Assembly (NCBI GenBank): GCA_046760905.1
Contig: JBHIFB010000001.1
Location: 38,064-102,063, forward strand
From: Candidatus Glassbacteria bacterium
Lineage (GTDB): Bacteria > Gemmatimonadota > CAZMKB01
DNA: 64,000 nt
Direction of reading: 5' to 3'
Part shown: positions 7,485 to 46,799 of the stretch, piece by piece
Layout: every line of letters starts with the position of its first letter
Numbering within the stretch: the stretch's first letter is position 1
The notes under the pieces: model-generated
Seen by the model: the letters and a program-made list of their open reading frames with translations, nothing else
The model's database searches: none
What the model was told of the DNA's origin: nothing
Position numbers and translations under genes: made by a program

Positions 7485-7491
7485 TAAACCA

Positions 7492-13095: not shown

Positions 13096-13172
<77 letters not shown>

Positions 13173-13221
13173 CCACCCCGCGATTTAATAAAATATATTA
13201 TGATGATTTTCTCATGTCAAG

Positions 13222-28700: not shown

Positions 28701-29120
28701 AGGACGACCGGATAGCGCCTGCCACACCTTCTGCCCGGCCAGCCTCTTCAGGTGAATTGAGAAAGGTCTTTTCGGATTTCCCTCGATCTCCTGGAGGTCG
28801 AGTACCGGTAGAAGAGACCCTTCCAGAGCCTCGACGGAGCGATCCAATTCCCTCGCGAGGGTTTCCGGGAACACCTTCCCTGCCAGGGGGAGGATGATTT
28901 GATGGATCAGGATGGTTATCATGACGGATAAGACACCAATCAAAAGGACAAACCTAATGACAGCGTCGATTCCGAAGAGCACATGGCCAAGCAGGGACAG
29001 GAAAAGCATGGAAGATGAGGCTGTTATGAGAAGGAGTCCGCCGCGTATCAATCGTTCGGACTTTCTCTTCACCAGGAGTTGATTGAGCAGCCGTCTTATT
29101 TGAAACTGGAATTGGTCCAT
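25710..29120 (-). CDS. giant (1136 aa) membrane-anchored protein with a Glu-rich coiled-coil central region
   Basis: N-terminal transmembrane helices, a roughly 450-aa extracytoplasmic region, then a very long acidic coiled-coil segment and a C-terminal domain. Uninterrupted ORF. Confidence 0.6.
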   Translation of the reverse strand: MDQFQFQIRRLLNQLLVKRKSERLIRGGLLLITASSSMLFLSLLGHVLFGIDAVIRFVLLIGVLSVMITILIHQIILPLAGKVFPETLARELDRSVEALEGSLLPVLDLQEIEGNPKRPFSIHLKRLAGQKVWQALSGRPREEIYRATGSGKRTAVFILLLVFITSCGLWYTLFYKYGRESDLALHEFIHPVQSMADENVWYFEVSPGDTSVLRGETPLIRVAVDDNIFVPVVRKPFPIIHFRVGTGKWNSLPMTPEGEAHYFALLSPLHSECSYYLQLDRRKSSEYSIDVIDLPSVTWLKYKLRHPEYSGLADSEVQDQGGGLSVLLGTLVELMGSSNNMLDSAWIEDERGVIPATVEEGRFFKASFEATETKRFKLKLIDSAGNAGGDSLAREILVMEDRAPSVQVLVPGQDVMVPKDLRLPLVVRAEDDYGLKSADLVCWNEENGKGSIRRLAIERLKGSEKIFQASFLWNLSELQAQAGDVFYYCVEAVDNDAVSGPKAGRSKTYLVKFPTMAEYLRHRLEGEKEISSGVEEILAEARRLSELSGELEKKLRGAEDVDWEKQREIEDVAERGEELLEEIKDVCTMIENSIGGEDEELFSNEVLEKMMEVRDLLEKLATPEMRDAIDRIHEAMESVPPSLLEQAMRNFRLNQEQLAANLDRTLTALKRLELEQRLEAIRTGLEKLGEKQAEVVEKLEFADRGEMNQLADRQKRIADELSALADEMEKAAEQMETLGETEADHEMDEIVESAEGEATETMREAMMAMQGGLKGSATQSGQQATEKLKTLEKSIAGLLNKLRSTWKEQTEDAIARALSDLVTLSRKQELIIRHVEEHGNRFGPDVGKEILAQQELLAGLQLIAQYLDEAAQNSFFIGPDVIISLGMSIAKSHEAAVMLNRGESTPREVAKLAGESLSHINQTAVGLLKDLESLQCSSSGIGLEEAFREMAQLAQMQAGLNQGTQDLLMPLPGSGLIKLTEKERALLVQLAAQQRAISEGLERLSDATAGSRNILGKLRELSRDTEEIAREMESHKVSPDILNRQKRILSRLLDAQKSIQERDYSRKRRAEPGDLIVGNPPGSMEKDALEGSAGKSLIELMESWKGTYPKRYRNLVFEYLREMISTKITERQAGVR

Positions 29121-30623: not shown

Positions 30624-31472
30624 CTACAGCGGATAAACGAAGATGTGGAGTGGATTTCCAAGCTCCGCCTTTTCGAAAACGGCGACGCCCTTCGAAACAG
30701 GGACCAGGCGTGGTTTTCCCCTCCCCACACATACGGCGCTGAGCGGATGGGAAACCTCCTTCCCATCGAAGTTCAGCTGCATGCACAAGGCGAAGTCCTC
30801 ATCGACATAAACCTGAGCACTCTGGATCGGGAAGCCGGGAATAGGTTCAAATTCAAAGAGCTCTTCCTCTTCCCTGTTTATCCCGACACGGGAAGTAATT
30901 TCGAGAAGCGGAAGGAAGAGCTTAACGGAAGCATTCAAAAAGAGACCGGGATCATATTTACCAATGAGGGCAATCCCGTTAGAGTTAGTGAGGAACTTCC
31001 CTTCGAGGTTGGTTACCTGTAGTGGGGTATATTGCATAGGGTACTGTTGCCCGATGCGGATGACGGCGAAGACATCCCCGGTATCACCGGAGAGCAGGAA
31101 AGAGCCCTTGATTTTTTCATCCGGCGACGATAGGGAAGAGAGTATCTGGAATGCATCCCCGGAATTTTCTGATGGGAGCTGTTTAAGCGAGTCAGGCTCC
31201 AGATTAACGATATACTCGGAGAAAAGCCTCGGAAAGGGTGCAGGCATGCCCGGCAGGACACCTTTTTTCTTCAGGTTTTTGCTCCCACGCAGATAGAAAG
31301 AGGCCAGAGCCTGATAAAGCTCATTACAGGTGAAACAGCATTCGAGATGTGAAAGGATCTCGGCCTCTTTCGATTCGGGCAGATTTTTCATCACGAACTT
31401 CTCGAGTTCGCTCTCGAGCGGGCATTCGCTTATTATCCTGTCCTTATCGTTTTTTCCACTTCCGTCTTTCAC
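30624..31472 (-). CDS. putative anti-sigma factor-like zinc-finger (zf-HC2) protein, cytoplasmic
   Basis: N-terminal CPLESELEKFV...HLECCFTCNELY matches the HxxxCxxC anti-sigma (ZAS) motif. No transmembrane segment, and no ECF sigma gene adjacent. Confidence 0.45.
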   Translation of the reverse strand: MKDGSGKNDKDRIISECPLESELEKFVMKNLPESKEAEILSHLECCFTCNELYQALASFYLRGSKNLKKKGVLPGMPAPFPRLFSEYIVNLEPDSLKQLPSENSGDAFQILSSLSSPDEKIKGSFLLSGDTGDVFAVIRIGQQYPMQYTPLQVTNLEGKFLTNSNGIALIGKYDPGLFLNASVKLFLPLLEITSRVGINREEEELFEFEPIPGFPIQSAQVYVDEDFALCMQLNFDGKEVSHPLSAVCVGRGKPRLVPVSKGVAVFEKAELGNPLHIFVYPL

Positions 31473-31917: not shown

Positions 31918-32565
31918 TCACTTCCCTCCCGAGCCCTTCTCGAAACTCCTGAGGATAGCGATCTCCTTCTTTCCAATATGAACTATCTCACCAAGTCTTT
32001 CAGCGAAGAACTGGACCCTTGCCGTATTTTCGAGATCCTCCATCCTCATATACGCATGCTCAACGTCGGTGCCGTGCGTGATGGCTCCATGGTTGGAGAG
32101 AACCAGTGCGTTCGCTTCCCTGACTTCTTCGAATACACGGTCTGCGAGATCCCTGGAACCGGGCATCATGAATGGTACGATGCCTACTTTTCCAACAGAG
32201 ACGACGAACTCGGGCAGGATATCGCAGGACGGCACGCGTCCCACCACAGAAAAGGCAGATATGTATGGAGCGTGAGCGTGGACGACGGATCGAGCATCCT
32301 CCCTGCTTCGATAGACAGCAAGATGGAAAGGCAGCTCGAGAGATGGCTCATGGCTTCCGTCCAATTTAACACCGTCTCTATCCACTTCCACGATATCGTT
32401 TGGTTCGAGGAAACCGATGCAGGAAGATGAGGGAGTGATGAGGATATTATCACGATCCGTGAGTGCGCTCACGTTACCGTTTCTGGATGGTGCGTACCCC
32501 CTCTCATACATAAGCCTGCAGAATTCCACTATTCGATTGCGGATATCGGAATCATCTCTCTTCAT
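31918..32565 (-). CDS. class II aldolase/adducin-family protein (fuculose-phosphate aldolase / MTRu-1-P dehydratase-like)
   Basis: YERGYAPSRNGNVSA...VVHAHAPY carries the metal-binding His motifs of class II aldolases. Confidence 0.8.
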   Translation of the reverse strand: MKRDDSDIRNRIVEFCRLMYERGYAPSRNGNVSALTDRDNILITPSSSCIGFLEPNDIVEVDRDGVKLDGSHEPSLELPFHLAVYRSREDARSVVHAHAPYISAFSVVGRVPSCDILPEFVVSVGKVGIVPFMMPGSRDLADRVFEEVREANALVLSNHGAITHGTDVEHAYMRMEDLENTARVQFFAERLGEIVHIGKKEIAILRSFEKGSGGK

Positions 32566-32657: not shown

Positions 32658-33497
32658 ATGATCAGAACTTACGGTATCATAGGATTCATCGTGATAGTGG
32701 CAGCGGAGCTTCTCCTGTACTATGACGTTAGACCAGTACCACTGTTTTTTACACCCATTGTGTGGTGGGGGTACATCCTGTTTGCCGACAGCCTGGTTTT
32801 CAGGATGAGAGGTAGCTCACTTATCACCTCATACCCCAGAACCTTTCTTTGTATGCTCCCCATCTCGATTGGCTGCTGGCTTATATTCGAACTATACAAC
32901 CTGCACCTTGCAAACTGGGAGTATGTGAACCTGGCGGAATCATTCAAGGTGCGGGTGCTGGGTTACGTGCTGGCCTTCTCCACAATTTTCCCCGGGATCT
33001 ATGAGACGGCACACCTGATCCAGGCGCTATTCTTCCCGGACGGTCTTGCCGGGAGGAGAGTTTCCTTCTCCCATGGAATGAGGACCATGCTAATCGTGAT
33101 CGGGGCTGTTTTCATGATCACGCCGCTCCTCGTCCCCAAAGAGGTATCAAGCTATCTGTTCGCACTCGTCTGGATAGGCTTCATTCCTCTCCTGGATCCA
33201 ATCAACAGAAAGCTCGGAGCACCCTCAATAACAGCCCAGCTTGAGAACGGTGACTGGGAGACGTTTCTCTCATTCGCCCTGTCCGGCATAGTCTGTGGTT
33301 TCCTCTGGGAATTCTGGAACTACTGGGCACTGGCCAGATGGGTATATCACGTCCCGTTCTGGTCGAGTGTAAAGATCTTCGAAATGCCCGTGCCCGGTTT
33401 CCTGGGTTTCATTCCTTTCGCGCTGGAATGTTACGTGATGTTCAATCTATGTGCATCAGTCTTAGGCATTCAATACGTCCATTTCCCCAGGAGATAG
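32658..33497 (+). CDS. hypothetical polytopic membrane protein
   Basis: About eight predicted hydrophobic helices. No recognisable family motif. Confidence 0.45.
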   Translation: MIRTYGIIGFIVIVAAELLLYYDVRPVPLFFTPIVWWGYILFADSLVFRMRGSSLITSYPRTFLCMLPISIGCWLIFELYNLHLANWEYVNLAESFKVRVLGYVLAFSTIFPGIYETAHLIQALFFPDGLAGRRVSFSHGMRTMLIVIGAVFMITPLLVPKEVSSYLFALVWIGFIPLLDPINRKLGAPSITAQLENGDWETFLSFALSGIVCGFLWEFWNYWALARWVYHVPFWSSVKIFEMPVPGFLGFIPFALECYVMFNLCASVLGIQYVHFPRR

Positions 33498-33586
33498 AAT
33501 GTCAATAGCTCACAGGTGGGATGATCAGGGAAGCGTCCATTATCCAAAAGCCTTGCATTCGGAGCTGGATTTCAGGGTCCAGAGTC

Positions 33587-34453
33587 CTAGCGCGAGTCGT
33601 GGGAGCATTTGGGAACCCATCTTGGTCTGGCAGGAAGTGGAAAGCCAAGCAGATGCTGTGACAGGAGCACGGGCCTCTCGATCTGAGGGAAATGACCGCA
33701 GCGATCGATGATGAGCAGCTTGGCGCCATACTGATCAGATAGTGAGCGAAGAACCTTCCCGTCGCAGAGAGGATCATCCCTACCGGCTACAAACAGGATG
33801 GGCATTGAAGCGCCTCTCATTCCCGAGATCTGGCCAGCAAATTCATCTTCGATGAGGCACGACAGACGAAGAAGGCCTTCCCTTTTTTCATCGTCATCCA
33901 GAGGCTCGAGAATCCTCCCGATCATTTTCTCGTCAAGGGAATCAGGTTCATATACTAGCTCGCGGAAGATTTTCCGAATCCCATCCGGGTTCACTTTCAG
34001 CCGGAAGAAGGTTCCGAGCGCCGGAGATAAAACAGGCTTCAACCAGGGAAGATTCTCCTTCTTTCCCAGAAATGGTGAAAGGAGCACTAGACCAGCTACA
34101 GTGAGTGATGGACTGGCATTCATAACGGGATGGCAGCTGAAGGAGTGGGCGATAATGAGCGGATTTGACATGCCCATTTTGCGGATAAACTCCAGGATGA
34201 GATTCGAGAGGTGATCCATGGAAAATGTTTCAGGCACTTTCTGGGAAAAACCGTGGCCCGGTAAATCGGGGGCCATGTAACTGAACGAACCTGCAAGCCT
34301 ATCCATAAGAGGCAGCCAGATGGCTGAATATGTGCCGAGGCCGTGCATAAGGAGGAGTTCGTGTCCCGTACCTCCACAGAGATAGCTCATCGTCACTCCC
34401 TCTACCTTCACTTCCTCCCTTCTTGGTTTGATTTCGTTTTCCACGGAATTCAC
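33587..34453 (-). CDS. alpha/beta-fold hydrolase
   Basis: HGLG oxyanion-hole region (LLMHGLGT) and a nucleophile elbow variant (IIAHSFSC). Distal gene of the acyl-CoA operon. Confidence 0.65.
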   Translation of the reverse strand: MNSVENEIKPRREEVKVEGVTMSYLCGGTGHELLLMHGLGTYSAIWLPLMDRLAGSFSYMAPDLPGHGFSQKVPETFSMDHLSNLILEFIRKMGMSNPLIIAHSFSCHPVMNASPSLTVAGLVLLSPFLGKKENLPWLKPVLSPALGTFFRLKVNPDGIRKIFRELVYEPDSLDEKMIGRILEPLDDDEKREGLLRLSCLIEDEFAGQISGMRGASMPILFVAGRDDPLCDGKVLRSLSDQYGAKLLIIDRCGHFPQIERPVLLSQHLLGFPLPARPRWVPKCSHDSR

Positions 34454-34479
34454 ACCAGTTCGTTATCGTAGATACGTTG

Positions 34480-35037
34480 CTACTCTTTGACCGCCTTCAG
34501 ATCGACAAGGGGGGCTCCTGCATCCACCACCTCGCCCTCTTTCACAAGTACCTTCCTGACGATGGAATCATAGGGGGCTCTGATCTCGTTTTCCATCTTC
34601 ATTGCTTCTACGATGACCAGACTAGTACCCTTCTTGACTTCATCACCCGCTTTGACCTTCACTTTTATCACGTTGCCCGGCATCGGAGAGGATAGCTTAT
34701 CACGTGCGGTATCTTGAGACAGCCCGGTCGCTTCCTCCGCTTCATCTATCATCTCGAAGAGGTAGTGTTCGCCTTCTATCGTAACACTCCTGCTGCTCCC
34801 GACTCTGTTTATCAAGGCGATAAATGATTTCCCCTCTATTATTATTGAGAGCTCGTGTTCGGATATCCAATGGTAGTCGACACGGCTTGACCTACCGTCG
34901 ATGGTAATGAACAGACCTTCTTTGCCCTCGCTTATGTCCAGATCGTACCTTTTACCATCGAGTCTGAAGGATGTAGTCACTCTCTTCCTCCACTGCTTTT
35001 CTCCGCACCCTCGGGAGAACTGCCCAGGATCCTCCAT
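34480..35037 (-). CDS. biotin carboxyl carrier (BT-BCCP) segment of an acyl-CoA carboxylase alpha subunit
   Basis: C-terminal biotinylation motif EAMKMENEI. The N-terminal 100 aa resemble the BT linker domain. It overlaps the biotin carboxylase ORF by 61 nt in another frame. Confidence 0.75.
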   Translation of the reverse strand: MEDPGQFSRGCGEKQWRKRVTTSFRLDGKRYDLDISEGKEGLFITIDGRSSRVDYHWISEHELSIIIEGKSFIALINRVGSSRSVTIEGEHYLFEMIDEAEEATGLSQDTARDKLSSPMPGNVIKVKVKAGDEVKKGTSLVIVEAMKMENEIRAPYDSIVRKVLVKEGEVVDAGAPLVDLKAVKE

Positions 35038-36539
35038 CCGTTAAATCTTTCCCACGGGCTCTGATAGACCGGGGGGTGTGATTCACCCCTTGCCTTTGAA
35101 CGTTCATCTCTTTTCTGATCGATCGCCGCTGCGATAAGGGCCTCTCTCAGATGCAACCTCCTGGCTTTCGTCTCCTTCCAGGAAGGAAGGAAACGCGGTA
35201 TTGTCTCGGTTGTAGTAAGGCCCTTGGCGAAATCGGGATCATCCATGAGATCGGTGAGAAAATCTATAGTCGTCTTTATCCCGAGCACTCTGTACTCGAG
35301 GAGTGCTCTCTTCATCCTCTTCCTGGCCGTCTCCCGGTCCTGCCCCCAAACGATCACCTTTGAGAGTATAGGGTCATAGTACATGGGAACATCACAGCCG
35401 CTATACATGCCTGAATCGACCCTCACCCCGATGCCTTCCGGTTCCCTGAGGAAGCCGACCTTTCCAAACGACGGCAGGAAGTCGTTTTCAGGATCTTCCG
35501 CGTAGATGCGACACTCGATAACATGCCCGTGGGGCGTTAGGTCCTCCTGACTCAGGTCGAGCGGGAGGCCTGCTGAAATCTTTATCTGCTCCTTCACAAG
35601 GTCAACACCCGCAATGAGCTCGGTAACCGGATGTTCGACCTGAAGCCTGGTGTTTACCTCAAGAAAATAGAAGCGTCCCTCTCCATCGACTAGAAACTCC
35701 ACCGTTCCAGCGTTTCTGTATCCGACGGCCCTGACCACATCGACCGCCGCCCTGGCCATCTCCCTCCGTTTTTCTTCATTCAATGCTGCAGAAGGCGATT
35801 CCTCAACGATCTTCTGGTGCCTGCGCTGAATAGAGCACTCCCTCTCAAAGAGGTGTACTATATTCCCGTAGTGATCGGCCAGAATCTGAAACTCGATGTG
35901 CCTCGGTTCCTGGATATACTTTTCCAGATATACGCTCGAGTCGCCGAACGCAAAATCAGCCTCCCTCATTGCACCTTCGAAAGCTTCTTTCAACGCCTCC
36001 CCATCCTGGATGACTCGCATCCCCTTCCCGCCCCCGCCGGAAGCCGCTTTTATCATGACCGGGAATCCTATCTTCTCCGCCTCCTCAAGCAGCGTGCTTG
36101 ATTTGACAGCCTCCCCCACCATGCCCGGAATGATGGGTATGCCGGCCTCAGTGACCTTCTCTCTCGATTTGAGTTTGTTCCCGAGGAATCGTATCTCCTC
36201 ATGGCCGGGTCCGATGAATGTGATGCCGGCATCGGTACACTTTTTCGCGAAATCCGGATTTTCTGCGAGGAATCCATATCCAGGGTGGATCGCCTCGACA
36301 CCTGAGGTCCTGGCTGCCCTGATGATGGCTGTATGGTCCAGGTAGCTCCTAGTCGGTTCGGGCGGGCCTATGCAGACCGCTTCATCAGCCATCTGGACAT
36401 GTAGCGCTTTCCTGTCGACCTCGGAATATATCGCAACGCTCCCTATGCCCATATCCCGAAGCGTTCTAATCAAACGGACTGCGATCTCGCCCCTGTTCGC
36501 TATGAGTATCTTACCGAACACCTTGCAAACCTCATTCAT
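34977..36539 (-). CDS. biotin carboxylase (acyl-CoA carboxylase alpha, BC domain)
   Basis: ILIANRGEIAVR and the ATP-grasp motifs. The SPWERFNGWR tail normally continues into the BT-BCCP domain. Confidence 0.9.
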   Translation of the reverse strand: MNEVCKVFGKILIANRGEIAVRLIRTLRDMGIGSVAIYSEVDRKALHVQMADEAVCIGPPEPTRSYLDHTAIIRAARTSGVEAIHPGYGFLAENPDFAKKCTDAGITFIGPGHEEIRFLGNKLKSREKVTEAGIPIIPGMVGEAVKSSTLLEEAEKIGFPVMIKAASGGGGKGMRVIQDGEALKEAFEGAMREADFAFGDSSVYLEKYIQEPRHIEFQILADHYGNIVHLFERECSIQRRHQKIVEESPSAALNEEKRREMARAAVDVVRAVGYRNAGTVEFLVDGEGRFYFLEVNTRLQVEHPVTELIAGVDLVKEQIKISAGLPLDLSQEDLTPHGHVIECRIYAEDPENDFLPSFGKVGFLREPEGIGVRVDSGMYSGCDVPMYYDPILSKVIVWGQDRETARKRMKRALLEYRVLGIKTTIDFLTDLMDDPDFAKGLTTTETIPRFLPSWKETKARRLHLREALIAAAIDQKRDERSKARGESHPPVYQSPWERFNGWRILGSSPEGAEKSSGGRE

Positions 36540-37329
36540 CGGACTGCCAGGAAGGCTTTCTCTTCTCGAGGTAGGCCCTGAGCCCTTCCTGACCCTCGGG
36601 CGACACCCTCATCTCGGCGATAAGCCTGGCGGTGTACTCCTTCGCAACCTCGAGAGAGCTGCCTGTTACGCTCTCGATGAGCTTTTTGCTCGCGGTCACC
36701 GCGCCCGGCGCGCCTTTTTCTATTCTTTCCACATACTCAGTGACGACCTCATCCAGCTCGTCGCCTGTCACGATACAGTTCACGAGTCCTATTTCATGCG
36801 CACGGGAAGTACTTATCTTCTCACCCGTAAGGAAAAGTTGCCTCGTCACACCCTCACCGACCTTCTTCAGCACGTATGGTGCAATGCAGGAGGGTACCAC
36901 GCCGATCCTAACCTCGCTGAAGGCAAAGAATGCATCCTCCACGGACACCGCTATGTCGCAGGCTGCAACGAAGCCGATCCCTCCCCCCATCGCGGGTCCA
37001 TTCACCATCGCGATAGTGGGAAGAGGGTGCGAGTACAGCTCATAGAGGCAGTGAGCGAGCTCCTCGGCTTCCCTGAGGTTCTCCTCCAGGCTCAGATCCA
37101 TGCTCTTCTTCATCCAGGAGATGTCTGCACCGGCACAGAAGCAGGTCCCTTCACCGGTGAGGATTATCACCCTGTAGTTTTTTTCACGACGAAGATTTGC
37201 CAGCGCGTCGCGGAGTTCCACTAGCATTTCGAGGTCGAAGGCGTTCCTGACCTCCTGCCTGGCGAAAGAGATCAATGCTGCCCTGCCGTGAGGCTTGATG
37301 GTTATCTTCCTGTATCCATCCTGCTTCAA
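36532..37329 (-). CDS. enoyl-CoA hydratase (methylglutaconyl-CoA hydratase-like, LiuC-type)
   Basis: Crotonase fold (ITGEGTCFCAGADI...). Start proposed at the TTG 4 nt after AGAGGAGG, which avoids overlap with the upstream carboxyltransferase; the longest ORF reaches 37407. Confidence 0.8.
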   Translation of the reverse strand: MKQDGYRKITIKPHGRAALISFARQEVRNAFDLEMLVELRDALANLRREKNYRVIILTGEGTCFCAGADISWMKKSMDLSLEENLREAEELAHCLYELYSHPLPTIAMVNGPAMGGGIGFVAACDIAVSVEDAFFAFSEVRIGVVPSCIAPYVLKKVGEGVTRQLFLTGEKISTSRAHEIGLVNCIVTGDELDEVVTEYVERIEKGAPGAVTASKKLIESVTGSSLEVAKEYTARLIAEMRVSPEGQEGLRAYLEKRKPSWQSDE

Positions 37330-37342
37330 GCAACCTCCTCTG

Positions 37343-38950
37343 CTACATACGGAACACGCCGTAGGCCTGATCCGGGATAGGTGCATTGAGCGACATGGAG
37401 ATTCCAAGCGCGAGAGCTTCCCTTGTCTTCAAAGGATCTATTATGCCATCATCCCAGATGCGAGCCGATGCGTAGTACGGGTTCCCCTCGTCCTCATACT
37501 TCTTCAGCGTCGGTGCTTTGAACTCCTCCTGCTCCTCAGGGGTCATGCTCTTTCCTTCCTTCCGGAGCTGCTCCAGTTTGACAGTCAGTAGCACGTTTGC
37601 CGCCTGTTCGCCTCCCATTACCGAGATCCTCGCATTGGGCCACATCCAGAGCAATCTCGCGCCGTAGGCACGGCCGCACATTCCGTAGTTACCAGCACCA
37701 TAAGATCCACCTATGATGAGTGTGAACTTCGGCACCCTGGCGTTCGCCACAGCATGAACCAGTTTCGCACCGTCTTTGGCGATGCCACCGTGCTCATACT
37801 GCTTGCCAACGATGAAGCCGGTTATGTTCTGGAGGAATATGATCGGGATTTTCCTTATCGTACACAGTTCAACGAAGTGTGCCCCTTTGAGGGCGCTCTC
37901 GCTGAACAGTACGCCGTTGTTGGCCAGTATTCCGACCGGGTAACCTTCTATGTAGGCGAAACCGCAAACGAGGGTTGTGCCATACAGCTCCTTGAATTCG
38001 TGGAATCTGCTGCCGTCAACCAAACGGGCGATTATCTCCCTCATGTCGAACTGCCGCCTCAGGTCCTTAGGTATGATGCCGTATATCTCTTCGGGATCGT
38101 AATATGGTTCTTCCGGTTCCCTCACATCGAGTCTACTTTTCTCTTCCTTCGGAACGTTCTCTATGATGTTCCTTGCCAGTTCAATGGCATGCTCATCATC
38201 GATTGCATAATGGTCACTCACTCCCGAAATTCTGCAGTGCACATCGGCGCCTCCCAACTCCTCGGCGGTCACATCAACGCCTGTCGCCGCCTTCACAAGA
38301 GGCGGACCACCGATATATATCGTCCCCTGTTGTTTAACGATGATCGTCTCGTCACTCATCGCAGGAACGTATGCACCTCCGGCTGTGCAGAAACCAAGCA
38401 CCACGCTGACCTGGGCGATGCCCATCGATGACATCACGGCCTGGTTGAAGAAAATGCGACCGAAGTGAGCCTTGTCCGGGAAAACACCCGCCTGAAGCGG
38501 CAAGAAGACACCGCCCGAATCGACGAGGTAGACGCACGGAAGGCGGTTCTCCATTGCTATCTCCTGAGCCCTGAGGTGCTTCTTTATAGTCATCGGGAAA
38601 TACGTTCCGCCTTTGACTGTCGCATCGTTTGCGACGATCATCACCTCACGCCCGTGAATCCTCCCTATCCCTGTCACTATGCCTGCCGAAGGTGCTTCGC
38701 CACCGTACATGCCATAGGCTGCGAATGGAGAGAGCTCAAGGAAAGGGCTTCTCTTATCGATGAGCAGGCTGATACATTCCCGCGCCGTCAGCTTCCCTCG
38801 TTCCTTGTGCTTCTTGTGTGCCTTGGAAGGTCCCCCTTTCTTGATCTTCTCATACCTTTTGCCCAGTTCCTCGACGAGGGCTGTCATCGATTCCTTGTTA
38901 TCCTTGAAGTCCTGGCTGGTTGTGTCAATTCTGGAATTGATCCTGTACAT
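37343..38950 (-). CDS. methylcrotonoyl-CoA carboxylase beta subunit-type carboxyltransferase
   Basis: 535-aa two-domain carboxyltransferase of MCCB/PCCB type ([12 protein letters not shown] ... [15 protein letters not shown]). Confidence 0.9.
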
Positions 38951-39130
38951 TTTCTTCCTTCCGGATCCTGTTTAAGAGACCAGTTTTTTCCCTTGAAGGA
39001 GAGAGCGGTTTCTGATGCGCGAAAGGTATCGCGAAGGCCCCTGGCCTGGAGAACATGTGAAAACAATGCATCGACCGGCATCCGCTCATGAATCGGTCGC
39101 AGGTGTCAGACGACATGAGAAGCGTGGAGC

Positions 39131-39523
39131 TCACTCCACCACTGCTTTGTGTCCATAACAGAGGATGCCTTCGTCCCCATCTTTCTGTATCATTCTAAAC
39201 TCGAGCTTCACAGGCATCCCGATCTTCAGCTCATCAGATTCTACATCGGCTATGCCTACTGTAAGCCTCACGCCCTCTTCAGTCTCGACTATCCCTACGG
39301 CGTAAGGAGTATCATCTCTGAACTGTGGGGGCGGTACGTGGATAACAGTGTAAGTCAGGAGCTTTCCTCTGTTTGAAAGATTCTTAGTCTCGAATTCTCT
39401 GTTTTTACACTCCGGGCAAATCGCTCTGGGCGGATAAGCAATAAATCCGCATTTTGTGCACAGCGCCGCCTGGAGCCTGTATCTCTGGGGAGTCTCCCTC
39501 CAGTATCTCTGAGCGGTACTCAT
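39131..39523 (-). CDS. DUF35 Zn-ribbon/OB-fold protein (partner of the thiolase/HMG-CoA synthase complex)
   Basis: [20 protein letters not shown] zinc ribbon followed by an OB fold. Overlaps the thiolase stop by 4 nt. Confidence 0.8.
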
Positions 39524-40677
39524 GCCACCTCCAGTATGTGAATGACACTGCTTCCTCCGGTTCCACCCATATTCTGCGCGAGCGCCACCTTCGCACCTTC
39601 AACTTGTCTTCCGTCGGCTTCTCCCCTAAGCTGCTTTACGAGTTCCACCAATTGAGCACACCCTGTCGCACCGACCGGGTGCCCCTTGGACTTGAGTCCC
39701 CCGCTCATGTTTACCGGTATTTTACCACCCATGTCCGTGAGGCCGGATTCCGCCGCCTGGCCTCCTTTGCCCTTCTCAACGAAACCTAGATCCTCTATGA
39801 CGCATATCTCGGCTATTGTGAAGCAGTCGTGCACCTCAGCAATATCTATTTCGCCTGGTATCTTCCCGGCCATCTTGTAAGCTTTCTCTGCCGCTTTCAC
39901 GGTGGAATCTATTACAGTGATGTCCTTCCTACTATGCAGCGCCATAGAATCCGTAGCATTCGTGGAGGCGATGATCTTCACAGCCGGCTTTCTCGACAGC
40001 TTCTTCGCCATATCGAGAGGACACATCAGAACCGCAGCAGCACCATCAGTGATCGGTGAGCAATGCAAGATCCTGAGTGGATCGGCTACCATCGTCGAAC
40101 TCATGACTCCCTCTAGGGTGACCTCAAAAGGATATTGACCAAGCGGATTCTTAGCACCATGCTTGTGATTTTTAACAGCGACATGGGCGAGTTGTTCCAG
40201 TGTCGTACCGTATCTTTCCATGTGAGCGCGTGCTATCATGGCGTAAAGACCGGGGAAGGTCGCCCCGTTGTATACCTCGTACTCCTGATCGGCTGCCGTT
40301 GCCAGTGCGAACGTGGCCCCGGCTCCCGATACATCGGTCATCTTCTCGACACCGGTCGCGAGCACGATGTCGCTCATACCCGATGCAACTTCGGTATACG
40401 CCATCTTCGCGCTGAGGCCCCCCGATGCACAGGCCGATTCGACTCTCGCGCAAGGCGACGGACACGCCCCGAGGTAATCGGCCAGCAGGGAGGACAGATG
40501 TTCCTGTTCAACAAAAAGTCCGCTGGACATCGATCCCACATAGATCGAATCAACGTGATCCACACCGGCATCATCTATCGCAAGGAGAGCCGCTTCGACC
40601 CAGATATCCCTGAGAGACTTATCCCACAGCTCACCCCACTTGTTCATCCCGACTCCTATTATCGCAACGTCCCTCAT
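39520..40677 (-). CDS. thiolase (acetyl-CoA C-acetyltransferase, archaeal/SCP-x-like type)
   Basis: N-terminus [13 protein letters not shown] is typical of DUF35-associated thiolases. Catalytic Cys region present. 385 aa. Confidence 0.85.
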
Positions 40678-40687
40678 TCGACTCCTC

Positions 40688-41734
40688 CTACCTCTTGAGC
40701 TTTATCTTTCCTCTGAATTTTGCATACCTGCCGTAATCGATGTACTTCTTCTGTCCATCGAGCATGGTTCTTGTTTTTACTGCGCGATCTCTCACCTCCA
40801 GGAGCCTGTCTGTCGCCCTGAATACGAAGGCATCGGATCCGGCACCGGAGCCATATGAGACCATGAGGATTGTGTGTCCCGGATCTGCGATGTCTAAGAC
40901 TGCCGTGAGGCCCATGGGTGATGAGCCGGAGTACGTATTCCCCAATACGGGGCAGAGCCAGCCCGGTTCTATTTTCTCTCTAGGAATGCCCAGAAGCTTC
41001 CCGGCCCGCATCGGGAACTTCCCGTTAGGCTGATGAAAGATGGCCCAGTCGATTTCATCGGCTGAGAGGCCGCTCCTTTTCAGGATCCCTTTCGCGGCTC
41101 CGAGCGTGTGCTTGAAGTATGCAGGCTCTCCTGTGAACCTGCCCGCGTGACTCGGATAGAACTGGTACTCCCTCCGCCAGAAATCCGGGGTGTCCGTCAT
41201 GAAGGAATAGGTGGCCTCGACCGTGGCGAGCGGCTTTTCCTTTCCGAATATGAATGCGGCCGCCCCTGCGGCGGTTGAATACTCGAGGGCATCGCCCGGT
41301 GCACCCTGAGATGTGTCGGCACCGACTGCGAGCCCGTATTCAATCGCACCGCTTTCAACGAGGCCAATCGCAACGAACATTCCCTCGGAACCCGCCTTGC
41401 AGGCAAACTCGAAATCTGCGCAATGGACGTCGGGTGTGGCGCCGATTGCCTCGGCGAGAACTGTTCCGCTCGGTTTCACCGCATACGGGTGTGATTCTGA
41501 ACCCACATAGACGGCCCCAATTTTCGAAGGATCTATTCCAGCCCGTGCGAGCGCGTTCCTGCTTGCTTCGACTGACATGGTGATCGTGTCCTGATCAGGA
41601 GCAGGTACGGATTTTTCAGTGAGCATCAAACCTTTTTTGTAACTCTCGGCATTCGCTCCCCATACCTTCGCTATCTCCTCCACTTTTATTCGATGCCGCG
41701 GTATGTAGGCACCGTATCCCACTATACCGACCAT
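40688..41734 (-). CDS. hydroxymethylglutaryl-CoA synthase (archaeal-type HMGCS)
   Basis: [26 protein letters not shown]...[12 protein letters not shown] closely follows archaeal HMGCS. Start placed at the conserved MVGIVGYG; the ORF extends to 41770. Confidence 0.85.
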
Positions 41735-41865
41735 AGAAGAACCTCCGTCTCTCAATTCCACTAAGAACATTTAAAAATCAGTAGTTAAATATAGCACCGG
41801 CCAGAGAAGCTGTCAATTTACATGCTCAACGTGGATTACTATACTTGCTTAGTGGTCGCGTTCGC

Positions 41866-42000
41866 AATTACGGTAACATATTATCACTCTGGGAAGCGAC
41901 CTTGCGCGAGCTTCCGAAAAGGGCCCTGGGGGGCGCGAGCCCCTGTGGAAGTGCTGCGTTTCCTTCCCAGAAACGTTACCGTAATTATGAAACGCAGCAC
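41866..42000. repeat. two interleaved perfect 12-bp inverted repeats in a divergent intergenic region
   Basis: AATTACGGTAAC (41866-41877) pairs with GTTACCGTAATT (41975-41986). GTGCTGCGTTTC (41951-41962) pairs with GAAACGCAGCAC (41989-42000). The order is A..B..A'..B'. Confidence 0.55.
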
Positions 42001-42030
42001 TTAGGAGAACATACCTGCAGGGAGTGAAGG

Positions 42031-43506
42031 ATGAAACAGATTTTCTATTTCACAATTATGATTTTCAATGTCATCTTTGTCCTTCCCGGTCAACTGACGG
42101 ATGGAAGGTTCCAGGGAGAAATTGGGAAACAGGAGCTGATAAGGCAACAGAATCCAGGGAGCAGAGCAATTATCAATTATGCGGGTAACAGGCCTCAATA
42201 CACTCCGGGTGCTCGTATTAAGGGTGGGACAGGTTCGAGTGGTATAGAGAAAGACGAATTTGGTGGATTGAAAATCTCAAAGTTTGAGGCGACGGGATTT
42301 TTCCGGCTAGAGAAATTAGATGGAAGGTGGTTTCTAGTGACACCTCAGGGCCATCCCTTTTATATAGTTGCTATAGATGGTGTAACACCATGGTATAAGG
42401 ACTACAAGAATACATCCTTTGAAACGAGATATAAGAAGAGATTCATATTATGGGCCAATATCGCCGTTGATAGAATCAGTTGGTTGGGGTTTAATACATT
42501 AGCGCATAAAACCGCCGAACAATGCATAGAGCAAATGGTAAACGGTAACGTCTGGAAAATCCCGTTCACAGTATTGGTGCCATTTGTGGAGAAGAAGACT
42601 TTTCCTGATGTTTTTTCTGAAGATTTTAGAAACCTAGTAGACCGTAAAGCGAAAGAATATTGTGAGCCATTGAAGGAGGAGTCCTATCTCGTGGGATATT
42701 TTCTCGGTAATGAACTCGATCTTAACCTTTACCGCCGTGGAGAAATAGACTGGCGAACCAGGTGGGTGAGGGCTCTTCTGAGTCAGGAACCTGACACACC
42801 GGCCAGAAGACAGTTTGCAGCTCTGCTTGAGAAAAAATTCCATACTATCGATGAACTCACCGAGGAGTTCGGTGAATTAAAACCGCGCTTTAGCTCCTTT
42901 GATGAGATAGGATTCAATCAAATATGGCCTGCTTTCAAGAAGGGGATCCCGCAAGCTGTTGAAATCGTGAAAGCCTACAATGCTCAAATAGCCGAAAGGT
43001 TCTACAAGCTGACCAGTGAAGCAATAAAAAGATATGATGGTAATCATCTCATCCTGGGATCGAGGTTTGCCAACGACGCAGAGATAGAAGTGTTGAACTC
43101 GACCAGAGATTATACCGATGTCGTCTCCTTTAACAAATATCCTTTAAAAGGACGGTTGCCGGTCTCTCTCTATGAGAAGATGTATGGCAATACAGAGAAG
43201 CCTCTATTTCACACAGAGTTTTCATATCTCGAAGAGGGCAGGGATGGGAATTATCCACCCGCACCGGACCAGGAGACCCGTGGGCTGTATTATACTAAGT
43301 TGGTGAGGGCAATGGTTGAAGTCGATGAAGTAGTGGGGTACGGTTGGCATGAGATGTTCGATCCAAAATATGGATCGAATTTCGGCCTTTTCGATGTACA
43401 TGATGAATTATACTATGATGCGGCGAAGCATATAATGGAGGCAAATCGACTTGTTGAGAGAAGATTCGCTGAGATAATTGCAAAGAAGATCAATGGGAGG
43501 AAGTGA
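42031..43506 (+). CDS. putative clan GH-A (TIM-barrel) glycoside hydrolase, secreted
   Basis: Signal peptide. Candidate acid/base motif LGNELD and nucleophile motif HTEFSY with appropriate spacing for GH-A enzymes. Confidence 0.45.
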   Translation: MKQIFYFTIMIFNVIFVLPGQLTDGRFQGEIGKQELIRQQNPGSRAIINYAGNRPQYTPGARIKGGTGSSGIEKDEFGGLKISKFEATGFFRLEKLDGRWFLVTPQGHPFYIVAIDGVTPWYKDYKNTSFETRYKKRFILWANIAVDRISWLGFNTLAHKTAEQCIEQMVNGNVWKIPFTVLVPFVEKKTFPDVFSEDFRNLVDRKAKEYCEPLKEESYLVGYFLGNELDLNLYRRGEIDWRTRWVRALLSQEPDTPARRQFAALLEKKFHTIDELTEEFGELKPRFSSFDEIGFNQIWPAFKKGIPQAVEIVKAYNAQIAERFYKLTSEAIKRYDGNHLILGSRFANDAEIEVLNSTRDYTDVVSFNKYPLKGRLPVSLYEKMYGNTEKPLFHTEFSYLEEGRDGNYPPAPDQETRGLYYTKLVRAMVEVDEVVGYGWHEMFDPKYGSNFGLFDVHDELYYDAAKHIMEANRLVERRFAEIIAKKINGRK

Positions 43507-43614
43507 TGTCACATGATGCCTGAGGAATACCTGAACCGGCTCAGTTGACAAGCCCTCTCGTTCATGCTATCATCATATCACCTTCCGCGACATCCTGTGA
43601 TAAGGAAGAACTTC

Positions 43615-45042
43615 ATGAAACCGTGCTTTTACATCATGCGGGCGACCAGGTGGATGCGGTTGTGTTCCATCCTGATAATGATTTCGCTCATTTATTGTGC
43701 CGGGCGGAAGAAGCCCCCAAACGTGGTCCTAATAATGGTCGATACCTTGAGAGCGGATCACCTGTCATGTTTGGGGTCGAAAGAGCTGCTAACACCAAAC
43801 ATTGATTCCATCGCAGAAGAGGGATTCCTGTTCACGAATGTCCACGCGACAGCACCAACCACACTCGCTTCGACGAGCTCACTCATGACATCTCTTTATC
43901 CAAGAATGCATGGAGCAGCATGCAATGGCCTCCAGCTTCACAGTTCTCTCCGTACTCTGCCTGAAGAATTAAGGAGCAAAGGTTATACAACCGCTGCGTT
44001 CGTTTCATCTTTTGCTCTCCACTCGAGCACGGGGATCGACCAGGGTTTTACCTACTTCGATGAAGCATTCGACAAGACATTTGGCAGTCCCGAAATTCAG
44101 AGAAGAGCAGGTGATGTCAATAGTGCAATCTACGGCTGGTTATCAAGGAGACCTTCTGAGCCCTTCTTCCTATTCGTGCACTACTTCGACCCGCATCCTC
44201 CGTATACACCACCCCCACTGTTCCGTGGGACTGGAAGCGAGGACACTGGAACAGAGATCACCGGATCATGGGAAGATCTGGTCGAGCTCAAATACTATCT
44301 GAGCGAGGGAGGAGAAGTGGACGCCCGGCTCGAGCGAATGCACCGTCTTTACATGGGAGAAGTGAAATATACAGACCATGAAATAGGAAAACTGATGGAC
44401 ATGCTCGAAGAGAGTGGCTTCCTTGAGAACTCACTTATAGTCTTCACGGCTGATCATGGAGAGACATTTTGGGAGCATATGGAGATGGGTGAATACCTGG
44501 ATCACGGATACATGGTGTATGAGACGACGACACACATTCCCCTTATCATAAAATGGTCGGGGAAGGTGCCAGAAGGTGTGAGTGATATGATGGCGAGCAA
44601 CATCGATATCGCCCCAACCATTATAGATCTGCTCGGATTTACCGTACCGAAAGGTTTTGCAGGAAGAAGCCTCGTGAGAGTAATGGAGGGACGGATGACA
44701 GAGGATGTGCCGGTATTTTCCGAAGCCACTAAGCCACACGGCGAAATAGAGTTGGAAACTGCTTTCAAGAACGACCGAAAAGCGAAATGTGTTTATATGG
44801 GCGGCTGGAAATTCATATGGGTACCGCACCTAAATGACCAAGAAGAACTGTACAACCTCACCCTGGACCGATCGGAGTTGAGAAACCTTCTAAAGGAGAG
44901 TGTGCACTCAGATAAGGTAAAGGCTATGAGATGGGCACTACGACAGTGGACACTGGAGGTTTCCAAAGTTGCGCTAGGTCGAAGCTATGAAATGGATGAA
45001 GAGACGCGGGAGAAACTCAAGACGCTCGGCTATGTTCAGTGA
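43615..45042 (+). CDS. sulfatase-like hydrolase/transferase (alkaline phosphatase superfamily), membrane-anchored
   Basis: VVLIMVDTLRADHLSCLG metal-binding N-terminal motif, one N-terminal transmembrane helix. No CxPxR formylglycine motif was seen. RBS AAGGA before the ATG at 43615. Confidence 0.7.
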   Translation: MKPCFYIMRATRWMRLCSILIMISLIYCAGRKKPPNVVLIMVDTLRADHLSCLGSKELLTPNIDSIAEEGFLFTNVHATAPTTLASTSSLMTSLYPRMHGAACNGLQLHSSLRTLPEELRSKGYTTAAFVSSFALHSSTGIDQGFTYFDEAFDKTFGSPEIQRRAGDVNSAIYGWLSRRPSEPFFLFVHYFDPHPPYTPPPLFRGTGSEDTGTEITGSWEDLVELKYYLSEGGEVDARLERMHRLYMGEVKYTDHEIGKLMDMLEESGFLENSLIVFTADHGETFWEHMEMGEYLDHGYMVYETTTHIPLIIKWSGKVPEGVSDMMASNIDIAPTIIDLLGFTVPKGFAGRSLVRVMEGRMTEDVPVFSEATKPHGEIELETAFKNDRKAKCVYMGGWKFIWVPHLNDQEELYNLTLDRSELRNLLKESVHSDKVKAMRWALRQWTLEVSKVALGRSYEMDEETREKLKTLGYVQ

Positions 45043-45259
45043 GGCATTGATAAATACGTTGAGAATAGTGATGCAGTGACCTCCCTAATAGGAATCTCAG
45101 GTGAACTCATACACACCGCTCGAGTAGTAGAAGAAATCCGTATAAACCTCTTCTGATCTGCCCCCCCGGATGGACCTGTGTGTCCTGTAAGGGAAATTCA
45201 ACCGGTGGGCTCTGCCTTTGAAGGCTGTCCTTGAGGGAGAGTGGTAGGAATTCAGCAGT

Positions 45260-45309
45260 GAAAATTGAGTTGTCATTCGACAGGCAACTTTTCTATTATA
45301 TTTTTTAAG
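45260..45309. terminator. imperfect hairpin plus T-tract between convergent genes (candidate bidirectional terminator)
   Basis: GAAAATTGAGTTGTC...GACAGGCAACTTTTC followed by TTTTCTATTATATTTTTT. It overlaps the 3' end of the minus-strand gene. Confidence 0.25.
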
Positions 45310-46799
45310 ATCGATTCATCTATTCGTACCATACGGTATATTCCGCCACGTTTCGGCTTCTCATCAATCGATTCGGGTTTCTTGAAGTCGGGATTGTAGA
45401 AACTCCACACAACCTGTCCATCAGTCGTTACTTCGAATACACGACCTTTGTTTGTTTCTGTAATCAATACGTTCCCATTTCCTAATTTCTGGCAGCCTCC
45501 TCTGGATTTCGAGAAAAAGGAGTTCGATGGATTCCCTTTATATGTCCAAACAATGCTCTTTTGCTCCGGGTCCACCTCGACGATTCGAGAAAAGCGTCTT
45601 TCTGCGCCATTGTCAAAGACAATGATATTTCCGTTTGGAAGAACAGAGGGTTGATGAGGTTTGTCAAGATCCTTCATTCCCCAACTCCATACAACCTCTT
45701 CTATATCGGGATCGATTACCGCTATTAGATTCAGTTCCCTGATGCATATTAGCATATCCCCCTGCTTCCAAAACCCTTTCCGGGCTGTTTCAATGACTTC
45801 TATTGTGTTCGAATGAAGAACATCTGCCGGGCTCAAATGTAATATTGCAATCTTGATCGCATCATCCTCTCTGGAATTACCGCTGACTATTTCCCTGTAC
45901 AGTTTTTTGTGCAGTTTAAACAGCTTCCTCAATTTTTGTTTCCGCCCTTTTCTCAACCTGCCCTTAACGAATGTCAACATGTTCCTCAGGGATTTAATAA
46001 GCGATTTTTCCGGCTTCTCTTCTTGTAGATCTACATCATTCTCTGGAAAGTTTTTTTGGATGATTTTCCACAGTTCTCTTTCTAATTCTTCGTTCTTTTT
46101 CAAAACTTCAATAATTGATATGCGACGTTTTACTTTACCATCCTGCGATAGGATTACAATATGATTATCCAACACCTGAAGCTTTCGACCGGAATGGTTA
46201 ACAGTCACAGGCACATCGACTATCGTGTATATATCGCCATTTTCCGAGATAGAAATATCGTGATGAGCGGATATTTCGGCTTTCCATTTTACATTCGAAT
46301 ACCAATCCAATTTAAGCAGCATGTGGTGGGAGCCGATCACGAACAAATTGCCATTCTTATCCATCTCGATATGATTCCAGCCCTCGTAATGTCGTGGAGT
46401 CGCCTTGTCGAAACGTTCTATAACTTTCTGCTTGGCCGATCCCGCTTCATCTGAAGACCAGGTGTGGACAACCCGACCATCCATTGTTATCAAATGCGCT
46501 TCTGTTCGTGCCCTTGAATTGTAGAGGTTGAGGCCCTGATAAGATAATTCAGGGATATATTCGGTGACACCGGCACTTCCTGAATCCTTTTCGTCGACCG
46601 GGACCCAGTTGACATATCCAAGGTTTTCTAGCTCCTCAAGCTGATCCTCCGATAAACCGCTCTTTCTTTCAACCGCTGTGTCTTTCTTCTTTGTAATAGA
46701 TTCCTGCTTCTCACCGCAGGCCGCTGACAAGAGAGAGAATATTATGAGATTGGCGAGAACCAACCATTTACTTATGCCCGAAGAACTTATTTCTTCCAC
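45273..46799 (-). CDS. secreted/lipoprotein beta-propeller protein, arylsulfotransferase (ASST)-like
   Basis: Lipoprotein-type signal (LLSAAC). Repeated propeller-like blades (NGNLFVIGSHHMLLKLD, DHIVILSQDGKV). The family assignment is tentative. Confidence 0.4.
   Translation of the reverse strand: MEEISSSGISKWLVLANLIIFSLLSAACGEKQESITKKKDTAVERKSGLSEDQLEELENLGYVNWVPVDEKDSGSAGVTEYIPELSYQGLNLYNSRARTEAHLITMDGRVVHTWSSDEAGSAKQKVIERFDKATPRHYEGWNHIEMDKNGNLFVIGSHHMLLKLDWYSNVKWKAEISAHHDISISENGDIYTIVDVPVTVNHSGRKLQVLDNHIVILSQDGKVKRRISIIEVLKKNEELERELWKIIQKNFPENDVDLQEEKPEKSLIKSLRNMLTFVKGRLRKGRKQKLRKLFKLHKKLYREIVSGNSREDDAIKIAILHLSPADVLHSNTIEVIETARKGFWKQGDMLICIRELNLIAVIDPDIEEVVWSWGMKDLDKPHQPSVLPNGNIIVFDNGAERRFSRIVEVDPEQKSIVWTYKGNPSNSFFSKSRGGCQKLGNGNVLITETNKGRVFEVTTDGQVVWSFYNPDFKKPESIDEKPKRGGIYRMVRIDESILKNIIEKLPVE

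Follow-up and report, generated by a model that had tools for sequence, protein, structure and literature searches.

Archaea encode acetoacetyl-CoA thiolase, 3-hydroxy-3-methylglutaryl-CoA (HMG-CoA) synthase (HMGCS) and a DUF35 protein in three adjacent genes, and the complex of these proteins has been structurally characterised (PDB 6ESQ). The clusters for leucine and isovalerate catabolism, such as liuABCDE of Pseudomonas and the Mcc-Ech-HmgL genes of Desulfococcus multivorans, encode the beta subunit of methylcrotonyl-CoA carboxylase (MCC), a hydratase and the MCC alpha subunit in an order like the one reported here. This study describes a bacterial locus in which both gene sets are joined, located on a 64,000-nucleotide stretch of a Candidatus Glassbacteria bacterium assembly (GCA_046760905.1, contig JBHIFB010000001.1, positions 38,064 to 102,063 of the forward strand), which is referred to as the window throughout. 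Seven collinear minus-strand genes (34480-41770) encode, in order, an archaeal-type HMGCS, a thiolase, a DUF35 protein, an MCC-beta-type carboxyltransferase (CT), an enoyl-CoA hydratase (ECH), a biotin carboxylase (BC) and a biotin carboxyl carrier protein (BCCP); an alpha/beta hydrolase gene comes next. Comparison of related loci made the case much stronger that the two halves are one functional unit and not chance neighbours, and the operon is probably a lyase-free variant of the leucine pathway assembled from known enzyme families.

Compared with the archaeal complex, the trio of the window shares the three adjacent genes, the E-C-H-N tetrad of HMGCS, the CxS, GHx and HDxF motifs of the thiolase and the four-cysteine ribbon of DUF35, but it differs in its bacterial host, in being co-operonic with MCC and a hydratase, in having no mevalonate genes nearby and in a proposed flux that would run opposite to the archaeal one. 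Relative to the Liu clusters, the operon is without the HMG-CoA lyase gene (liuE), whose place is occupied by the HMGCS trio; additionally, no isovaleryl-CoA dehydrogenase gene (liuA) was found in the window, and MCC-alpha is split into BC and BCCP genes. The myxobacterial Aib operon (aibR-aibA-aibB-aibC-mvaS, plus LiuC) also ties an HMGCS to 3-methylglutaconyl-CoA and 3-methylcrotonyl-CoA chemistry, leading from acetyl-CoA to a branched C5 acyl-CoA with no lyase. However, the Aib route relies on the biotin-independent AibA/B decarboxylase, the AibC reductase and a bacterial-type MvaS, whereas in the operon described here the biotin carboxylase is ATP-dependent and complete, and the HMGCS is of the archaeal type and accompanied by thiolase and DUF35. 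Assemblies of DUF35 with an SCP2-type thiolase fold are also known to work in bacteria in the C-C cleaving direction, as in the benzoylsuccinyl-CoA thiolase BbsAB (PDB 7PXP) and in the steroid side-chain aldolase Ltp2-ChsH2(DUF35); these are much more distant homologues (BbsB and BbsA matched window proteins with 214 and 30 bits, respectively), have no HMGCS partner and act on other substrates. Lastly, archaeal-type acyl-CoA carboxylases (e.g., of Metallosphaera) are made of separate AccC (~510 aa), AccB (~170 aa) and PccB proteins, a layout shared here by BC (~500-520 aa), BCCP (~166-185 aa) and CT (~535 aa), although the CT of the window is of the MCC-beta type and not of the acetyl/propionyl-CoA type. 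A description of the operon was not found in the full texts searched, a coverage that excludes subscription journals.

Gene content of the operon

Eight consecutive open reading frames (ORFs) occupy 33587-41770 on the minus strand, and their identities were assigned by Pfam and NCBIfam profile searches, which bore out the gene identifications and coordinates that the initial annotation had given for the seven collinear genes. Gene calls made on a Logan contig (L081), which has the same gene order and encodes an identical thiolase, refined four of the starts. The features, in the direction of transcription, are as follows.

41788-41816, minus strand: sigma-70-like promoter candidate; TTGACA, 17-nt spacer, TATATT, with an extended -10 TG; consensus match only
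40688-41770, minus strand: archaeal-type HMG-CoA synthase (HMGCS); ORF of 360 aa, likely start at 41734 giving 348 aa
39520-40677, minus strand: acetoacetyl-CoA thiolase, archaeal/SCP2-type; 385 aa
39131-39523, minus strand: DUF35 scaffold with Zn ribbon and OB fold; 130 aa, its start overlapping the thiolase stop by 4 nt
38951-39130, minus strand: spacer between DUF35 and CT; 180 nt, with the ribosome-binding site GGAAGGAAG, as read from the sequence, directly before the CT start
37343-38950, minus strand: carboxyltransferase (CT), MCC-beta, LiuB-like; 535 aa, Carboxyl_trans 520 bits
36532-37407, minus strand: LiuC/AtuE-like enoyl-CoA hydratase (ECH); ORF of 291 aa, L081-based start at 37329 giving 265 aa
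34977-36539, minus strand: biotin carboxylase (BC) and initial part of BT; 520 aa, N-terminal half of a split MCC-alpha
34480-35037, minus strand: BCCP with an N-terminal extension matching BT; ORF of 185 aa, L081-based start at 34980 giving 166 aa, C-terminal half of the split MCC-alpha
33587-34453, minus strand: alpha/beta hydrolase; ORF of 288 aa, L081-based start at 34390 giving 267 aa, Abhydrolase_6 and Abhydrolase_1 domains

The HMGCS scored 540 bits against TIGR00748, the equivalog model of archaeal HMG-CoA synthase (cutoff 353), as opposed to 78-81 bits against FabH models, and it matched the Methanothermococcus thermolithotrophicus HMGCS of complex 6ESQ with 483 bits and 63% identity over 344 residues, interrupted by two small gaps only. 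A FabH or PhlA type was rejected on the basis of these profile scores and of the solved-structure matches, in agreement with the initial annotation, which had named the protein an HMGCS. The thiolase reached 536 bits on PRK06064 and 392 bits against the 6ESQ thiolase chain. The DUF35 protein carries the zf-ChsH2 and OB_ChsH2_C domains of Pfam and aligned end to end with the 6ESQ DUF35 chain (6esq_E; 113 bits, 42% identity).

The residues that define active archaeal complexes are E-C-H-N in HMGCS and CxS, GHx and HDxF in the thiolase, with HDxF forming the shared CoA site (PMC12960953), and all of these catalytic and CoA-site motifs were intact in the window trio. The HMGCS tetrad, E92/C124/H246/N278 in ORF numbering, aligns to 6ESQ; the thiolase carries C82-A-S, G332-H-P and H283-D-C-F; and the four-cysteine ribbon of DUF35 was present as C22xxC25...C36xxC39. 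Among the relatives, the four catalytic motifs of HMGCS were kept in 80/80 and the HDxF and GHP motifs of the thiolase in 73/73, and the three genes were adjacent in every related locus that extends beyond the HMGCS gene. Every sequence-level hallmark of the archaeal thiolase/HMGCS/DUF35 complex was thus present, which identifies the trio, by sequence, as orthologous to the structurally characterised complex and suggests that it forms a physical complex that would channel acetoacetyl-CoA.

The CT matched MCC-beta chains best (768 bits for Pseudomonas aeruginosa, 765 for human MCCC2 and 746 for Mycobacterium tuberculosis AccD1), with much lower scores for the beta subunits of geranyl-CoA carboxylase (458 bits) and propionyl-CoA carboxylase (PCC; about 250-300 bits) and for the glutaconyl-CoA decarboxylase subunit GcdA (172 bits). 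Bit scores of this kind rule out the propionyl-CoA, geranyl-CoA and glutaconyl-CoA decarboxylase types, and the first of these outcomes upholds the earlier assignment of the CT to MCC-beta. By its beta-subunit match the CT is assigned to the methylcrotonyl-CoA type, and carboxylase activity on 3-methylcrotonyl-CoA is predicted. The top solved-structure match of the CT was PDB 9tps (chains A and G; 776 bits, likewise 535 aa long), whose deposited name is 'propionyl CoA carboxylase beta subunit'; this name may be generic, because the score resembles those of MCC-beta chains and lies far above those of other deposited PCC-beta chains.

The hydratase scored 180 bits on the Pfam domain ECH_1, 131 bits against the PDB entry of AtuE and 99 bits against LiuC of Myxococcus xanthus. 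Its best NCBIfam models were PRK05674 (gamma-carboxygeranoyl-CoA hydratase, AtuE-type; 248 bits, cutoff 426) and PRK07468 (235 bits, cutoff 350). It is presumed to be a 3-methylglutaconyl-CoA hydratase from its liuC-like position between CT and BC.

The BC carries the Biotin_carb_N, CPSase_L_D2 and Biotin_carb_C domains of Pfam, aligns with P. aeruginosa MCC-alpha over residues 6-499 of the latter, and contains the ATP-grasp motifs GGGGKG and EVNTR; its motifs were intact in 45/45 relatives, and it is encoded by a separate gene of ~501 aa in 43 loci. The BCCP, which scored 74 bits on Biotin_lipoyl and contains the EAMKME biotinylation motif, aligns through residues 78-181 to residues 550-651 of the same MCC-alpha and through residues 19-169 to residues 510-669 of PCC-alpha, and it too is a separate gene in ~39 related loci. 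The single chain (BC, BT and BCCP domains) that characterises the alpha subunit of MCC is therefore not found here, since BC and BCCP are encoded by separate genes. The initial annotation had listed the two as a separate biotin carboxylase and carrier protein; two genes are indeed present, but together they are best described as an MCC-alpha that is genuinely split, within BT by the alignments. The BC and BCCP ORFs overlap by 61 nt, which suggested a sequencing frameshift in one fused MCC-alpha, but this was rejected because the two are separate in the ~39 relatives and because the BCCP start called on L081 (GTG, 34980) overlaps the BC stop by 4 nt. The same three-protein layout (CT, BC, BCCP) was also seen in second, PCC-like carboxylase sets of loci L030, L032, L043 and L067.

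With regard to transcription, the promoter candidate at 41788-41816 matches 11/12 consensus positions, is the top-scoring site across 33000-42300 and precedes the two candidate HMGCS starts by 18-54 nt. It belongs to a pair of back-to-back promoter-like sites (41788-41845; 11/12 on the minus strand and 10/12 on the plus strand) lying between HMGCS and a divergent gene of 491 aa (42031-43506). A scan of the window sequence found no minus-strand terminator-like site and no promoter match above 9/12 positions in the spacer between DUF35 and CT.

Linkage of the two halves across bacterial phyla

Relatives of the HMGCS were collected from GTDB, with each species represented by one genome; at least 580 stretches were returned, and the best 80 were fetched and mapped with the eight window proteins. 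Gene order was counted in the 46 loci that extend at least 7 kb downstream of HMGCS. The exact order HMGCS-thiolase-DUF35-CT-hydratase-BC-BCCP was seen in 32/46 loci, and another six follow it up to the hydratase or BC, at which point the locus ends or BCCP falls below the detection threshold. With two further loci in which the MCC genes are adjacent to the trio but rearranged, MCC genes adjoin the trio in 40/46 loci in total. The genomes are labelled Zixibacteria, Eisenbacteria, Gemmatimonadota, Ignavibacteria, Aminicenantes/Acidobacteriota and Planctomycetales, and include a 'Cytophagia' metagenome-assembled genome (MAG). On a further contig, labelled Latescibacteria, the operon is very compact, with junctions of 0-29 nt, and an Ignavibacterium MAG (L041) carries at least the first six genes in order. 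Junctions within the operon are as short as 0-40 nt in the relatives, and the DUF35-CT junction measures 17-40 nt in several of them.

The pairwise divergence of HMGCS was correlated with that of CT across 40 loci (Spearman 0.70, 0/500 permutations), to a degree similar to that between HMGCS and thiolase (0.68); this correlation fits inheritance as one unit, and shared species phylogeny would also produce it. It has to be weighed against the reading in which a trio of the mevalonate type and a carboxylase set of the Liu type are unrelated operons that merely stand side by side, as might be argued from the 180 nt that separate DUF35 from CT in the window, from the trio standing alone in 6/46 loci and from the few loci with unrelated genes between the halves. 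Adjacency in 40/46 loci over several phyla, with the same order in 32, speaks against that reading, as do the short DUF35-CT junctions of the relatives, the lack of a terminator or strong promoter in the gap and the correlated distances of both halves. The side-by-side reading is largely refuted by synteny and now appears very improbable, and the proposal of the initial annotation that both halves form a single operon, here with one strong promoter-like site in front of it, gains accordingly.

Conservation did not extend to the alpha/beta hydrolase. The initial annotation had placed it after BCCP, and this is correct for the window; however, it follows BCCP only in L081 and in the 86%-identical relative L086, and it was not found in the clusters of the other 80 loci. 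It was therefore rejected as a conserved operon member and is a lineage-specific appendage outside the conserved unit, recurring in close relatives of the window only.

The HMGCS family extends well beyond the fetched loci. A protein database of metagenome proteins held more than 8000 HMGCS relatives at E < 1e-30, of which the best 120 were 73-99% identical and came without exception from uncultured bacteria. The best match in GTDB genomes (L001; 84%) belongs to a Gemmatimonadota-labelled MAG, and no synteny between the window and L001 was found outside the operon.

Genes are inserted in the operon of some loci, encoding ThiE, a cupin, a peptidase, TPR proteins, transposase-like proteins, four-helix-bundle proteins and one BirA-like ligase; they were rejected as missing pathway steps, with no lyase or reductase among them. 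In L004, L005, L006, L008 and L011 a small selfish-looking gene sits between HMGCS and thiolase, and L016, L022, L032, L043 and L048 have selfish-looking genes inside or just after the operon, in each case with the gene order undisturbed. One type of these genes resembles the four-helix-bundle '23S rRNA intervening sequence' proteins and the other the REP-associated tyrosine transposases. The BirA-like biotin-protein ligase (GRGRLSRTW motif) is encoded at 2594-3376 of L072, between HMGCS and thiolase and beside a ThiE-like gene.

Direction of flux and alternative readings

HMG-CoA is the sole metabolite common to both operon halves, and the genes expected around it were searched for directly. 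As the initial annotation had stated, no HMG-CoA lyase, HMG-CoA reductase or isovaleryl-CoA dehydrogenase was found in the window, by Pfam searches of almost all ORFs of at least 150 aa, motif scan or tblastn; the Pfam scans of the window also gave no HMGL-like domain, no AibA/B-type decarboxylase and no AibC-type reductase. Across ~85 loci (~1.2 Mb including the window), no HMG-CoA lyase was detected by the PRDGLQ motif or by tblastn with human HMGCL, and no class I or class II HMG-CoA reductase, GHMP kinase or isopentenyl phosphate kinase (IPK) by motif and tblastn; enzymes of the methylerythritol phosphate (MEP) pathway were likewise not found in any of the fetched DNA. With the tblastn queries used, these negatives are supportive and not conclusive. 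Genes downstream of the loci that carry the trio alone were rejected as mevalonate genes, as they encode release factor 2, NAD synthase, YggS and similar proteins. Additionally, the papers that describe the I. album, M. roseus and C. thermophilum genomes mention neither mevalonate nor HMG-CoA.

The recurrent neighbours of the operon are catabolic genes. A short-chain acyl-CoA dehydrogenase (ACAD) lies directly upstream of HMGCS or near BCCP in ~10/80 loci: immediately upstream of HMGCS in L015, L031, L033 and L072, directly downstream of BCCP in L024 and one gene further on in L073. L029 and L041 have an ACAD a few genes past BCCP, behind a thiolase II and a 3-hydroxyacyl-CoA dehydrogenase (Hbd); this last pair was seen in several loci. 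In L015, L031 and L033, the genes upstream of HMGCS encode, in order, the alpha subunit of electron-transfer flavoprotein (ETF-alpha), an HdrA2-like flavoprotein (867 bits on the HdrA2 model, under the cutoff), MeaB, both methylmalonyl-CoA mutase subunits (large and small) and the short-chain ACAD; this set may be an electron-transfer module for acyl-CoA oxidation. A second, PCC-like carboxylase and an epimerase are encoded upstream in L032 and L043.

Of the two opposite directions that the initial annotation had offered, catabolic and anabolic, these results combined lean towards the catabolic one, since the operon retains the canonical liuB-liuC-liuD block with its ATP-dependent BC and since its neighbours include ACAD, ETF, PCC and methylmalonyl-CoA mutase genes. 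The ordinary direction of that block, given that the ATP-dependent BC is kept, would be from 3-methylcrotonyl-CoA through 3-methylglutaconyl-CoA to HMG-CoA, and the intact BC motifs of the relatives fit a predicted carboxylase and not a decarboxylase. In Desulfococcus multivorans, the anaerobic isovalerate cluster holds Mcc, Ech and HmgL together and is induced by isovalerate (PMC5109826). In the window, the trio fills the lyase slot of such characterised clusters, and a lyase-free end of leucine and isovalerate catabolism is therefore favoured. We consequently read the locus as a Liu-type catabolic operon in which the trio, running in reverse, would replace HMG-CoA lyase, and assign this reading a probability of roughly 45%.

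Under the proposed scheme, the three-protein MCC (CT; BC with part of BT; the rest of BT with BCCP) would carboxylate 3-methylcrotonyl-CoA at the expense of ATP and bicarbonate, and the LiuC-like hydratase would convert the resulting 3-methylglutaconyl-CoA to HMG-CoA. The HMGCS site, working in reverse, would then turn HMG-CoA and CoA into acetoacetyl-CoA plus acetyl-CoA, with acetoacetyl-CoA passing via the shared CoA-binding site to the thiolase for exergonic cleavage to two acetyl-CoA. The net conversion would be HMG-CoA + 2 CoA -> 3 acetyl-CoA + H2O, as compared with two acetyl-CoA and one free acetate, after CoA transfer, for the lyase route. Since the lyase route frees one acetate, the reversed trio would keep one extra thioester (~one ATP) and would need no acetoacetate-activating enzyme. 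By textbook values, thiolysis yields about -26 kJ/mol and the reversal of HMGCS costs about +25 to +30 kJ/mol, so that the coupled reverse reaction would lie near equilibrium and would be favoured when the acetyl-CoA/CoA ratio is low. Citrate synthase, another 'irreversible' synthase of analogous chemistry, is reversed in vivo in Desulfurella and Thermosulfidibacter, and other DUF35-thiolase systems, such as BbsAB and Ltp2-ChsH2, are degradative.

Several observations weigh against this catabolic scheme. HMGCS is regarded as physiologically irreversible, and to our knowledge no catabolic action of it is known. The hydratase scored under the trusted cutoff of every NCBIfam model, and an acyl-CoA dehydrogenase is absent from the window itself. 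The neighbour ACAD of the related loci, moreover, scored higher as a short-chain enzyme (SCAD/Bcd, 308 bits) than as isovaleryl-CoA dehydrogenase (IVD, 250 bits), and is not clearly of the latter type. The six loci in which the trio has no adjacent MCC genes also indicate that the trio can exist alone.

That last point suits a reading, not listed in the initial annotation, in which the trio runs forward (3 acetyl-CoA -> HMG-CoA) to supply HMG-CoA, with MCC and the hydratase as a second, leucine-derived input and the drain, most likely HMG-CoA reductase and the mevalonate pathway, encoded elsewhere. Synthesis of HMG-CoA for mevalonate is the only demonstrated role of the archaeal homologue, whose HMGCS is the 63% identical one. 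Precedents for a dual input exist, as leucine feeds isoprenoids through HMG-CoA in trypanosomatids (PMC5993337) and 3-methylglutaconyl-CoA is drawn from both HMGCS and the Liu pathway in caprazamycin biosynthesis (PMC9636800). However, no reductase, GHMP kinase or IPK was seen in the window or the ~85 loci, and co-regulation alone poorly explains a fixed order of de novo and salvage routes across phyla. Bacterial mevalonate genes usually cluster, and the phyla that carry the operon are generally described as users of the MEP pathway, which also counts against HMG-CoA supply; we consider this reading unlikely. Less likely still is an anabolic, Aib-like route from acetyl-CoA to 3-methylcrotonyl-CoA or isovaleryl-CoA, serving iso-fatty-acid starters or leucine formation via reductive carboxylation, in which the trio would make HMG-CoA, the hydratase would dehydrate it and MCC would run in reverse as an ATP-yielding decarboxylase. 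The HMGCS of the myxobacterial aib operon offers a precedent for the link to 3-methylglutaconyl-CoA chemistry, and we estimate that every encoded reaction is near equilibrium; yet no BC-type carboxylase is known to us to be reversed physiologically for ATP synthesis. The route is attractive because Ignavibacterium album has no ilv/leu biosynthetic genes yet possesses a 2-oxoisovalerate:ferredoxin oxidoreductase that could carboxylate acyl-CoAs (PMC3362086), and Ignavibacterium MAG L041 is among the operon carriers. The product would be leucine only, however, whereas the described auxotrophies cover all three branched-chain amino acids; in addition, the neighbouring genes are catabolic (PCC, methylmalonyl-CoA mutase, epimerase, ETF, Hbd), and neither an AibA/B-type decarboxylase nor an AibC-type reductase was found in the window.

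The catabolic operon with a reversed trio and the anabolic route can also be combined, as a reversible, near-equilibrium and energy-conserving module (3 acetyl-CoA <-> 3-methylcrotonyl-CoA + CO2) in which thiolytic cleavage of HMG-CoA would recover the ATP spent by MCC as a thioester. Such a module, which we put forward tentatively as a possibility somewhat short of even odds, would constitute the first catabolic use of HMGCS, would be widespread, with the operon seen in uncultured bacteria that bear at least six different phylum labels, and could run towards isovaleryl-CoA and leucine when needed.

Surroundings of the operon and wider meaning

The rest of the window is made up of housekeeping and envelope genes, including FtsH, TilS, enolase, FtsB, CdaA, Wzz-type proteins, sulfatases and SurA, and the Pfam scans found no further acyl-CoA gene outside the operon, which therefore stands alone in its surroundings. 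Three ORFs flanking the operon have no Pfam match: 42031-43506 (plus strand, 491 aa), 30624-31472 (minus strand, 282 aa) and 32658-33497 (plus strand, 279 aa). The 279-aa ORF and a class II aldolase (31918-32565) recur on L081. Three successive large genes occupy 22604-29120 on the minus strand and encode proteins of 1136 aa (no Pfam match), 607 aa (TPR repeats) and 430 aa (no Pfam match). Two sulfatases, an arylsulfotransferase-like protein and a phosphodiesterase-family protein are encoded at 43564-46799, 48288-50195 and 57185-59338 among Wzz/GNVR and Poly_export genes, which suggests sulfated glycan metabolism. Two tRNA-Met (CAT) genes lie 5.5 kb apart (7491-7566 and 13106-13182, minus strand); one of them may be a tRNA-Ile2 precursor, because TilS is encoded nearby (5899-7329).

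The lyase-free hypothesis is directly testable, because the trio complex, like the three-protein MCC, is small, soluble and easily expressed. If the operon proves reversible, its module from acetyl-CoA to branched C5 compounds would be of interest to metabolic engineers. If it runs as proposed, this would be the first catabolic HMG-CoA synthase, with channelling making a nominally irreversible synthase reversible in parallel to reversed citrate synthase, and with the extra thioester the ATP balance for anaerobic oxidation of leucine and isovalerate would differ by ~one ATP per substrate. Because pathway reconstructions score by the presence of the lyase, carriers of the operon would be called incomplete for leucine degradation; by MAG label, those affected are Zixibacteria, Aminicenantes, Ignavibacteria, Eisenbacteria, Latescibacteria and Gemmatimonadota. 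If the trio does replace the lyase, many abundant uncultured bacteria would break down leucine and isovalerate by a route that pathway databases lack.

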